A stretch of DNA of 64,000 bases. Source: an uncultured bacterium (GTDB lineage Bacteria > Patescibacteriota > Minisyncoccia > Phycocordibacterales > UBA6065). This document shows positions 16,046 through 17,127 of this stretch, piece after piece. A model generated the notes under the pieces. The model made no database searches and was not told the DNA's origin. It was given only the letters and a program-made list of their open reading frames with translations. The stretch lies in NCBI GenBank assembly GCA_963841935.1, contig CAWJEP010000001.1, forward strand, positions 141,302 through 205,301, in the 5' to 3' direction. The position numbers were made by a program, and so were the translations under genes. The number at the start of each line of letters is the position of its first letter. Within the stretch, counting starts at the first letter, position 1.

Positions 16046-16783
16046 ATGAGCACAACCACTGCTCCTGTTGTCACCGACGGTGAACTCGCGACGCTTGCTT
16101 CACGGCAAGTTGAGCTTTTCACGCGTTTTAAGAAAGGGGTTTACGCAAATCCCTCCGAAGTGCTGGACGGTATCCAGCTTCTCATCGAAGGCAAACAGCC
16201 CGAGGTCATCCCGACGGTCGTTTCTTCGGACACGAGTTCGGTCATCTCCGACTGGCAGGACTTCTACAAGAAGTTCTTCGGTCTCAATATCGATTTGTCG
16301 GGAGTCAAAATCCCCGAACACGCCCTCGGTTTCGATCGGTTGATTGTGGTCCCGCAAGGTATCACGCTCAATCAAGTTTGGAAGGTGTGTGCAAGGCAGT
16401 TCAACTGCTGGAAATACACCGACTCTGACCTCGATAGTGCTGTTCCCACGAACAACCGAGACCCAAAGAGTGGCGCCTACGCCATCTGGGTCCGCGATGT
16501 TGTCGAAGCTGACAAGGAGATGAAGAATCTCTCGGCGGACGACCTCAAGGAAAGGACAATCAAGGGGGTCACTCTCCTCGAACGTCTACTTCTTGAGCTC
16601 AAGTATTTCTCGGAGACGGGAAAACACTTGGACATTAGCAACTGGACCCTCTGTTCGGGTTCCCGCCATTCGGGCGGCTGCGTGCCCTGTGTGCGCTGGC
16701 TCGACGGCTGGCTCAAGGTCGACTGGTACTATGTCGGCGGTCGGTACGACGACCTTCGTTCGCGTGTAGCAGTTACGCTTTAA
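16046..16783 (+). CDS. DGR target protein 1 (variable region VR1 at C-terminus; CLec/FGE-like tail)
   Basis: Paralog of the 17468 and 50810 genes (shared N-terminal helix pattern). C-terminal 100 nt pairs with the Asn-rich repeat at 17026-17127 with adenine-biased mismatches. Start could be the TTG at 15965. Confidence 0.55.
   Translation: MSTTTAPVVTDGELATLASRQVELFTRFKKGVYANPSEVLDGIQLLIEGKQPEVIPTVVSSDTSSVISDWQDFYKKFFGLNIDLSGVKIPEHALGFDRLIVVPQGITLNQVWKVCARQFNCWKYTDSDLDSAVPTNNRDPKSGAYAIWVRDVVEADKEMKNLSADDLKERTIKGVTLLERLLLELKYFSETGKHLDISNWTLCSGSRHSGGCVPCVRWLDGWLKVDWYYVGGRYDDLRSRVAVTL
16668..16769 (+). other. Candidate variable region VR1
   Basis: Aligned to 17026-17127: 25 mismatches, 21 where the partner has A. 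Confidence 0.55.
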
Positions 16784-16808
16784 GCTTTCTGCTTTTACAC
16801 TTGGTTTC

Positions 16809-16850
16809 GCGGCCTGCAAGTAAAAACTTGCAGGCCGCTTTTGTTTTTCA
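16809..16850 (+). terminator. Rho-independent terminator after target 1
   Basis: GCGGCCTGCAAG-loop-CTTGCAGGCCGC followed by TTTTGTTTTT. Confidence 0.75.
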
Positions 16851-17025
16851 TAAAATTATTCCGGCTATTAAATTGATCCGCCGATGAGGCGGATAACGAT
16901 TTGCCATAAAAAAGAAACTGCCTGCTTCATCTACACAACGCCTCGTTCGGGGTACAAACGCAGAAAATTTTGACGAAAGATTTTCGGTGACACGGAAGGA
17001 TGAAAGCAGTACACGAGGTTCGCGC

Positions 17026-17127
17026 AATTCTGACGGCAACGTGCCGAACGTGAACTGGAACGACGACAAGCTCAAGGTCAACTGGAACAATGTCGACAAT
17101 CGGAACGGCAACCTTCGTTCGCGTGTA
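17026..17127 (+). other. Candidate template repeat TR1 (AAC/Asn-rich, not in a credible gene)
   Basis: Eight AAC codons in 100 nt; shares ATTCTGACGGCAAC start and CTTCGTTCGCGTGTAG end with VR1. Confidence 0.5.

Follow-up and report, generated by a model that had tools for sequence, protein, structure and literature searches.

The DNA analysed here, a stretch of 64,000 nucleotides from a contig of an uncultured member of the Patescibacteria (hereafter the window), carries a diversity-generating retroelement (DGR) locus in which two different template repeats (TRs), each with its own variable repeat (VR), share one cassette with a single reverse transcriptase (RT). In prokaryotes, DGRs are the principal targeted hypermutation systems known, and they abound in the ultra-small Patescibacteria; outside phage BPP-1, it is still to be learned how they acquire targets and which features turn an RNA into a template. 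The template nearer to the RT, TR-B, is cognate to this enzyme, whereas the more distant one, TR-A, is a bona fide, undegraded template of another DGR lineage, bears a leader that by its sequence is heterologous to the resident RT, and ends in a truncated hairpin fused to a fragment of ligA, the gene for NAD-dependent DNA ligase (Pfam BRCT, HHH and ligase domains on 14569-15900). In order, the locus comprises ligA, the promoter P1, target1 with VR-A, TR-A, a second copy of the ligA 3' end with the promoter P2, target2 with VR-B, TR-B, the accessory variability determinant gene avd on the minus strand, the RT gene and gatC, with gatA behind it (Table 1). We refer to promoter, target and template upstream of the fusion as module A and to those downstream of it as module B.

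TR-A and VR-A form a genuine template/variable pair. Compared without gaps over 102 nt (gene 16667-16768 against repeat 17026-17127), the two sequences differ at 25 positions, 21 of which fall where TR-A has A, exactly as tabulated in the preliminary description of this DNA. The changes affect 21 of the 31 template adenines (68%) versus 4 of the 71 other bases (Fisher p = 1.0e-10), and they consist of 11 A>G, 7 A>T and 3 A>C substitutions (TR-A to gene) together with the four non-A changes T17031>G, G17046>C, C17049>T and G17108>A. Over codon positions 1, 2 and 3 the mismatches are distributed 12/10/3, and in the frame of target1 the repeat reads as 34 residues with eight AAC codons. The bias persists when gaps are optimised, with MAFFT placing none within the TR-A/VR-A repeat. 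The full homologous extent, 16657-16778 against 17016-17137, lies slightly beyond the limits first drawn. The identical 3' end reported earlier does exist, its exact extent being the 17 nt CCTTCGTTCGCGTGTAG, past which the sequences diverge, while immediately before this block the template has A and the gene has G. The common start ascribed to gene and repeat had been misassigned: ATTCTGACGGCAAC is instead common to the two templates, of which it is the only shared sequence, as also stated earlier, and the gene reads ATTCGGGCGGCTGC. An adenine-tolerant scan of the whole window returned exactly one variable copy per template.

Further traits of pair A are those of DGRs. The GC-rich block CCTTCGTTCGCGTGTAG is invariant between TR-A and VR-A and an inverted repeat follows VR-A, which together make up a predicted initiation of mutagenic homing (IMH) site; inverted repeats of this kind typically lie downstream of DGR variable repeats, and hairpins occupy the equivalent place after the VR in the related loci L035, L011 and L043. 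VR-A is the 3' end of an open reading frame (ORF) for a variation-tolerant C-type-lectin/FGE fold, and target1 has more than 1000 homologues, in whose family alignment the variable columns coincide with the adenine-containing codons of TR-A. Next to no probability attaches to the alternative that the pair is a plain diverged duplication of the gene's 3' end, or that the repeat is part of the ORF 16987-17247. It is true that this mechanically called ORF spans the repeat and that 4 of the 25 mismatches lie away from adenines. However, the ORF has no Pfam match and runs out of frame into the ligA fragment, as the earlier assignment of the repeat as non-genic would have it, the same stretch, leader included, is homologous to the non-coding templates of 27 or more related DGR loci, the RT and avd lie about 1.5 kb away, and the adenine bias itself (p = 1e-10) speaks against such a duplication.

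The lineage to which TR-A belongs was identified in a survey of 79 loci with target1 relatives in species-representative genomes (T1-type loci; L-numbers denote the loci compared). About 37 of the 79 are canonical, with the order target, TR (225-325 nt after the VR), avd (minus strand) and RT, and their template/variable pairs have 12-27 mismatches, nearly all at template adenines. Between the target1 stop codon and the end of TR-A, the window shares about 80% identity with the matching non-coding stretch in L035. Just 5' of the template, T1-type loci have a conserved element made up of a 9-bp hairpin, the sequence GGTGA.A.GGA.GGA and a linker of about 30 nt, and compensatory changes were found in eight of the nine pairs of this hairpin. 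A covariance model of this leader, R1, built from 27 T1-type loci with the window excluded, matched 16939-17041, which takes in the leader and the first part of TR-A, with 84.8 bits (E 3e-22), versus a maximum of 19.7 bits in 48 loci of the resident RT's clade. On account of the R1 match and the identity to the non-coding stretch of L035, TR-A is a bona fide, undegraded template of the T1-type DGR lineage.

TR-B carries a leader of another type. Loci of the resident RT's clade have two hairpins followed by GGTGG.A.GGA.GG, and helix 2 is 95.5% paired, with double changes in six of its eight pairs. A second covariance model, R2, built from 33 loci of this clade, again with the window excluded, matched 18376-18480, the TR-B leader, at 86 bits (E 9e-17); this was its sole match in the window, with none at TR-A. 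On T1-type loci R2 gave no template-leader match in 33, versus 37-75 bits on 12 held-out loci of its own clade. The leader type tracks the RT clade in all 81 other loci, and the window is the sole exception. Only TR-B, with the 86-bit R2 match and a terminator, has flanks typical of the resident RT and Avd; TR-A does not.

The enzymes divide in the same manner. The window has a single RT locus by tblastn over its 64 kb, 396 nt from TR-B and 1.86 kb from TR-A, with the features of DGR-type RTs, namely an RVT_1 domain with [I/L]GxxxSQ and YxDD motifs. This RT, like those of L084, L088 and L090, falls outside the group formed by the RTs beside T1 targets, to which it is on average 51% and at most 55% identical. 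In a second survey, of 80 metagenomic loci with RTs 61-78% identical to the window RT, about 50 loci include the template, and none of these has a T1-family target or two templates; across both surveys, zero of about 87 related loci has two templates. One RT, P0188, 68% identical to the window RT, seemed to stand beside a target1 homologue and was rejected, as it adjoins a third, unrelated target family. Since RT clustering, the survey of resident-clade loci and the leader models all separate TR-A from the RT, we conclude from these comparisons that TR-A is foreign to the resident RT and that its leader is heterologous.

The RT, Avd and TR-B form a set that is active at present or was until very recently. 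The locus L084 has the order ligA, target2, TR-B, avd (minus strand), RT, gatC, gatA, and is the one-template version that the preliminary description had proposed to look for in related genomes. The window from 17340 to about 20038 and L084 9123-11820 are about 99.85% identical outside VR-B, with four substitutions and one homopolymer length change, whereas the VR-Bs differ by 16 substitutions and one indel, 14 of the substitutions being at TR-B adenines; TR-B itself is identical. There are thus 17 differences inside VR-B versus 5 in the other 2.6 kb or so, which makes VR-B the sole mutational hotspot of the shared cassette, and pair B displays the trait of ongoing diversification, a VR that differs between near-identical copies while the TR stays constant. 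The activity follows from the fact that these cassettes differ almost only in VR-B and mainly at TR-B adenines. In the flanking ligA, gatC/gatA and pilin genes, the window and L084 share only 65-90% identity. This contrast with the cassette indicates that target2-TR-B-avd-RT was exchanged recently and horizontally between diverged genomes by recombination in the conserved flanks. Whole DGR cassettes would accordingly pass between genomes only about 80% identical, with the VR alone diverging afterwards, which is direct evidence of activity. The target2 protein has no sequence similarity to that of target1 and has few relatives, among them an intact 218-residue orthologue, 95% identical, in L084. 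The two profile matches of avd (Pfam bAvd, E 2.8e-9, 37.9 bits, cut-off 40; NCBIfam DivGenRetAVD, E 2e-16, 60.2 bits, cut-off 80) are significant yet under the curated cut-offs, and the gene has the same position and strand in about 90 related loci.

At the 3' side of TR-A lies the junction between the modules. Alignment of the window with canonical loci stops inside the post-template hairpin (truncated at 17153-17158). A strong hairpin and T-run follow the template in 27 of 27 canonical loci (mean -20.6 kcal/mol), with the avd 3' end next. After TR-A, the 5' arm and loop are kept (TCGCGAAGATCCGCTATTTC), and past GGCGG the sequence is that of ligA (CAAAGTTTCATCG...); native ligA reads AATCCGCTCCCTTGGCGGCAAAG at this point, which leaves a microhomology of ATCCGCT...GGCGG (7 + 5 nt). 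A scan for terminator-like sites found them after target1, target2 and TR-B and none after TR-A. The T1-type layout past the template, with an intact hairpin, a minus-strand avd and a T1-clade RT, is absent from module A, where the ligA fragment comes next. We also considered 17139-17153 as diverged ligA coding sequence and rejected this, because the alignment with canonical loci identifies it as the 5' arm and loop of the TR-A hairpin and its likeness to ligA as crossover microhomology. The junction would be the product of a crossover at the 7+5-nt microhomology, which would have removed the 3' arm, the T-run and the sequence beyond, by inference a T1-type avd-RT.

The two ligA copies have six differences, of which five are third-codon positions in the first 36 nt; the other 150 nt or so contain one, in the -10 box. 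Over the first 36 nt, copy 2 stands at the same distance from copy 1 as from L084, while its remainder matches copy 1, and past the first 36 nt both copies carry common variants absent from L084. On the simplest reading, copy 2 would be a fragment that derives from a diverged ligA, and gene conversion would later have homogenised it in part. These details also bear on the possibility of an assembly chimera, in which strains with ligA-target1-TR-A... and with ligA-target2-TR-B-avd-RT would have been misjoined and no cell would hold both templates. Such an artefact is conceivable for a metagenome contig (226 kb), the more so as a one-template locus exists in the relative L084 and as the assembly has oddities, namely a ligA split by a 32-nt imperfect duplication and the +1 indel in VR-B. 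We nevertheless regard it as very improbable: the sides of the junction are identical over only 7 and 5 nt, far below assembler k-mers; the six differences between the 186-bp copies, both of which have window-specific variants relative to L084, fit long co-residence with gene conversion; and a repeat-induced error would collapse the copies, not fuse a truncated hairpin to a gene fragment.

From these sequence patterns, a history of the locus can be proposed. Module A would come from a T1-type DGR (target, leader-TR-terminator hairpin, avd on the minus strand, RT) whose avd-RT has since been lost, and in which the C-terminus of target1 would have been rewritten from TR-A RNA by adenine-mutagenic reverse transcription and retrohoming. 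An illegitimate crossover at ATCCGCT..GGCGG would then have fused the TR-A 3' hairpin to the last 186 bp of the ligA preceding a second, unrelated DGR. A likely setting is unequal recombination between two alternative DGR cassettes at one ligA|gatC site in related strains, with the T2 cassette arriving at the T1 locus or the reverse. The outcome would be a composite locus with two promoter-target-template modules and one avd-RT.

As for its present state, the reading we favour, to which we give about an even chance, is that TR-A/VR-A is frozen or rarely rewritten. It follows from TR-A lacking both a terminator and a cognate enzyme and having a leader of foreign type. The DGR of phage BPP-1 depends, for processive synthesis of cDNA, on the non-coding RNA that flanks the template and is bound by Avd (PMC6182149); TR-A, whose leader is foreign and whose 3' flank is cut short, should by analogy serve poorly as a substrate. 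The mismatch pattern is in keeping with this. By the survey method pair A has five non-A mismatches, whereas 54 of 85 related pairs have none (median 0) and no more than three have at least 5, so that pair A ranks in the top 3.5%. Four of the five are silent and at third codon positions, a skew that is suggestive yet short of significance (p about 0.1 by our own estimate) because non-A sites are enriched at third positions. The same pattern of mostly silent non-adenine changes marks the Trichodesmium VRs that dropped from DGR targeting (PMC4143802). The earlier suggestion of decay is plausible in this respect, and does not hold for the template itself, which is undecayed.

The alternative is a working two-template DGR, in which one Avd-RT reverse-transcribes TR-A and TR-B RNAs and diversifies both targets, the additional module having been gained by recombination. 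We treat this as a real but lesser possibility. The modules are parallel and intact (promoter, 5' untranslated region (5' UTR) hairpin, target, GC hairpin, leader, template), TR-A with its leader is undegraded and target1 intact, the resident RT is demonstrably active, both templates open with ATTCTGACGGCAAC, 68% of the TR-A adenines are substituted in VR-A, and multi-template DGRs are on record, making up 55 of 271 multi-VR DGRs in one survey (PMC6642488). Against it stand the leader type, which follows the RT clade without exception in 81 other loci, the lost post-template hairpin/terminator of TR-A, the mostly silent non-A mismatches of pair A, the specificity that template flanks confer in BPP-1 (PMC6182149) and the count of two-template loci, 0 of about 87 related loci. 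We think it less likely than not that one Avd-RT serves templates with leaders of two otherwise strictly RT-clade-specific types, recognising them via the hairpin-GGTG-GGA core only. Of the two-template DGR proposed in the preliminary description, the two templates and the single avd-RT therefore stand; a single retroelement using both is put in doubt by the foreign TR-A leader, the cut hairpin and a resident RT clade without T1 targets.

Several observations weigh against the reading of module A as foreign, captured and now frozen. Both leader types have a shared plan (hairpin, GGTG.., GGA.G), which makes cross-recognition conceivable. TR-A is free of decay, keeping all family-conserved positions, its 34 adenines and the eight AAC codons, and the score of its leader is typical of the sequences on which R1 was trained; target1 is served by a near-consensus promoter of its own. 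Pairs that are demonstrably active can contain non-A mismatches as well, two of them in the case of the L084 VR-B, and so do 23% of surveyed DGRs (PMC5758913). At 41-84% mutual identity, T1-type RTs differ from each other as much as they do from the resident RT. Module A should readily be deleted through the 186-bp direct repeats, and its persistence suggests recency or selection. No T1-type locus stands beside ligA in the 79 genomes, which leaves the scenario of alternative alleles without a direct witness, and no second copy of module A, which is present in one assembly only, was found by exact target1 look-ups or with a 32-nt exact TR-A pattern in metagenome contigs.

Table 1. Features of the two-template DGR locus, with positions in the window.
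Feature	Position	Strand	Remarks
Native ligA 3' end with P1, copy 1 of the 186-bp direct repeat	15757..15942	+	last ~48 codons, stop at 15900
Promoter P1, TTGACA-18-TACAAT	15889-15918	+	11/12 match
target1	16046..16783	+	245-aa variable protein; large Patescibacteria family; FGE/C-type-lectin-like fold
VR-A	16657..16778	+	in-frame variable repeat, last ~40 codons of target1
GC-rich hairpin and T-run after VR-A, target1 terminator	16809..16838	+	13-bp stem, 9 GC pairs
T1-type template leader	16939..17015	+	hairpin 16963-16985 (GAAAATTTT/AAGATTTTC), then GGTGACACGGAAGGA, then ~30-nt linker
TR-A, template repeat	17016..17137	+	non-coding; 34 adenines; eight in-frame AAC; ~80% identity along its length to the L035, L011 and L043 templates
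Junction	17138..17158	+	post-template terminator hairpin: 5' arm and loop kept, 3' arm ends after GGCGG at ligA start
Copy 2 of the ligA 3' end (gene fragment) with P2	17154..17339	+	direct repeat of 186 bp
Promoter P2, TTGACA-18-TATAAT	17286-17315	+	12/12 match; predicted to drive target2
target2	17468..18160 as listed	+	second variable-protein gene; +1 G at 18011 shifts the frame; correct end TAA 18134-18136
VR-B	17993..18135	+	15 differences from TR-B: 14 at template adenines and a 1-nt insertion
GC-rich hairpin/terminator after VR-B	18189..18220	+	
TR-B leader, resident-RT-clade type	18376..18458	+	two hairpins, then TGGTGGTTTAGATGAC
TR-B, template cognate to the RT	18459..18600	+	identical in L084
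Terminator-like hairpin and T-run directly after TR-B	18608..18629	+	overlaps avd 3' end on the opposite strand
avd	18602..18964	-	convergent with TR-B, divergent from RT
G10 tract	18973..18982	+	in the gap between the divergent avd and RT, 13 nt before the RT start; only G/C run >=7 in 64 kb
DGR reverse transcriptase	18996..19979	+	327 aa; RVT_1 E 1.8e-22; LGNLTSQ and YADD motifs

Patescibacteria DGR templates in general carry a conserved structured leader RNA, composed of one or more covarying hairpins, GGTG[A/G]..GGA.G and a linker of about 30 nt, in at least two RT-clade-specific versions; it may act in Avd/RT binding, in priming or in processing. Rfam contains no family matching the leader/template region, and no description of template leaders of this kind was found in the literature. 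A pairing of the leader segment GACACGGAAGG with the template 3' end, judged by eye, was dropped as it is unconserved in other loci. A scan of 16840-17016 detected no sigma-70-like promoter for TR-A. The 5' UTR hairpins at 15954-16002 (target1) and 17337-17406 (target2) stand directly after each copy of the duplicated promoter and have common GC..CAGC ... GCTG..GC arms, the remainder being unrelated; they may constitute a common regulatory element of DGR target mRNAs.

Some relatives lack a local template or RT. L030 (6809-8605) has one template and two VRs with six non-adenine mismatches each, with no RT in reach; the isolate STA_35 genome (L004/L027/L032/L049) has target1 paralogues on three contigs without local templates; and the target2 homologues in L085-L087 have no DGR nearby. 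These loci may be remote or former targets.

The avd/RT gap contains a poly-G tract that recurs in 33 related loci (L007-L090) at lengths of G7-G14, with G always on the RT strand and 1-35 nt upstream of RT starts; such tracts account for 33 of the 48 G/C runs of at least 7 within 1.05 Mb of related loci. The length is G10 in the window and L001 and G9 in the near-identical L084 cassette. An upstream ATG (18988) shares the avd frame through the tract (PPP) when the length is G10, and does not when it is G9. The tract is a possible slippage-prone on/off switch or DGR expression element, and no description of a poly-G tract upstream of a DGR RT was found in the literature. In VR-B, the additional G at 18011, relative to TR-B and the L084 VR, adjoins an AAC position and makes the listed ORF end at 18160 and not at 18136; either a genuine indel of the DGR kind or a fault of the assembly could account for it. 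VR indels are known in DGRs (PMC5758913, PMC4143802).

A 32-nt insertion at about 14485-14516, an imperfect copy of the next 33 nt (GACCGAAAATGCGGCGAGCCGAAAATGTGAAC), divides the native ligA between the ORFs 13844-14551 and 14569-15900, and excising the insertion restores a conserved 16-residue motif; either an essential gene is disrupted or the assembly is at fault. A perfect 14-bp GC inverted repeat lies inside ligA at 15642-15672 (GGCCGCGCCCGCCG/CGGCGGGCGCGGCC), and just past it a 1-nt length difference between the window and L084 (about 8823-8856) places the L084 ligA C-terminus in another frame.

The locus offers a naturally occurring test of template specificity and captures a moment in the shuffling of DGR modules, in which cassette recombination can stack a second target/template module beside a foreign RT. 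If the foreign template is in fact used, template specificity would be looser than clade-specific leaders suggest, which matters for DGR engineering; if one Avd-RT accepts both leader types, DGRs could gain targets in one step by capturing a foreign promoter-target-template module, and the locus would be a natural experiment defining the minimal template determinants of Patescibacteria DGRs. If TR-A is unused, the locus shows a route by which variable proteins become frozen.

The 'B3' architecture is found in 90% of candidate-phyla-radiation DGRs (Wu et al. 2018, PMC5758913; Paul et al. 2017 cited there). Like these, the present locus has a target, a TR, avd on the opposite strand and an RT, with a small C-terminal VR, a short protein without Pfam domains and an AAC-rich template: module B with avd-RT is a textbook B3 DGR, and module A is the target-plus-TR half of another. 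Different from B3 DGRs, two templates and two unrelated targets stand here beside one avd-RT, and between avd and the first template, which is without its 3' hairpin, lie the second module and the ligA fragment. Two templates at one DGR are already known, for example in Stenotrophomonas sp. SKA14, whose DGR has two TRs and six VRs (Yan et al. 2019, PMC6642488). As in such multi-TR DGRs (PMC6642488), more than one TR lies at one RT locus and each TR has its own VR or VRs; the leaders of two RT clades and the recombination scar present here may set the locus apart from them, and its two templates may not both be used. No description was found in the literature of a locus whose two templates carry leaders of two RT clades and which shows a visible recombination scar.

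Like the DGR of Bordetella phage BPP-1 (mtd-avd-TR-brt), the locus has an adenine-specific flow from TR to VR, a VR at the 3' end of a gene for a C-type-lectin fold, a GC-rich inverted repeat after the VR, and an Avd and an RT with the LGxxxSQ motif. Different from BPP-1, avd lies on the other strand, overlapping the template region at its end, the host is a cell and not a phage, and the template has a conserved structured element on its 5' side and a terminator hairpin on its 3' side, where BPP-1 has a 140-nt spacer. The degenerate VRs of Trichodesmium erythraeum (Pfreundt et al. 2014, PMC4143802) likewise keep the adenine signature with mostly silent non-adenine changes added, and some of them have an inserted-G frameshift, as does VR-B here. 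In Trichodesmium (PMC4143802), however, all VRs draw on a single template and it is the VR or the RT that decays, whereas VR-A has a private template and stands beside an RT that is active on another.

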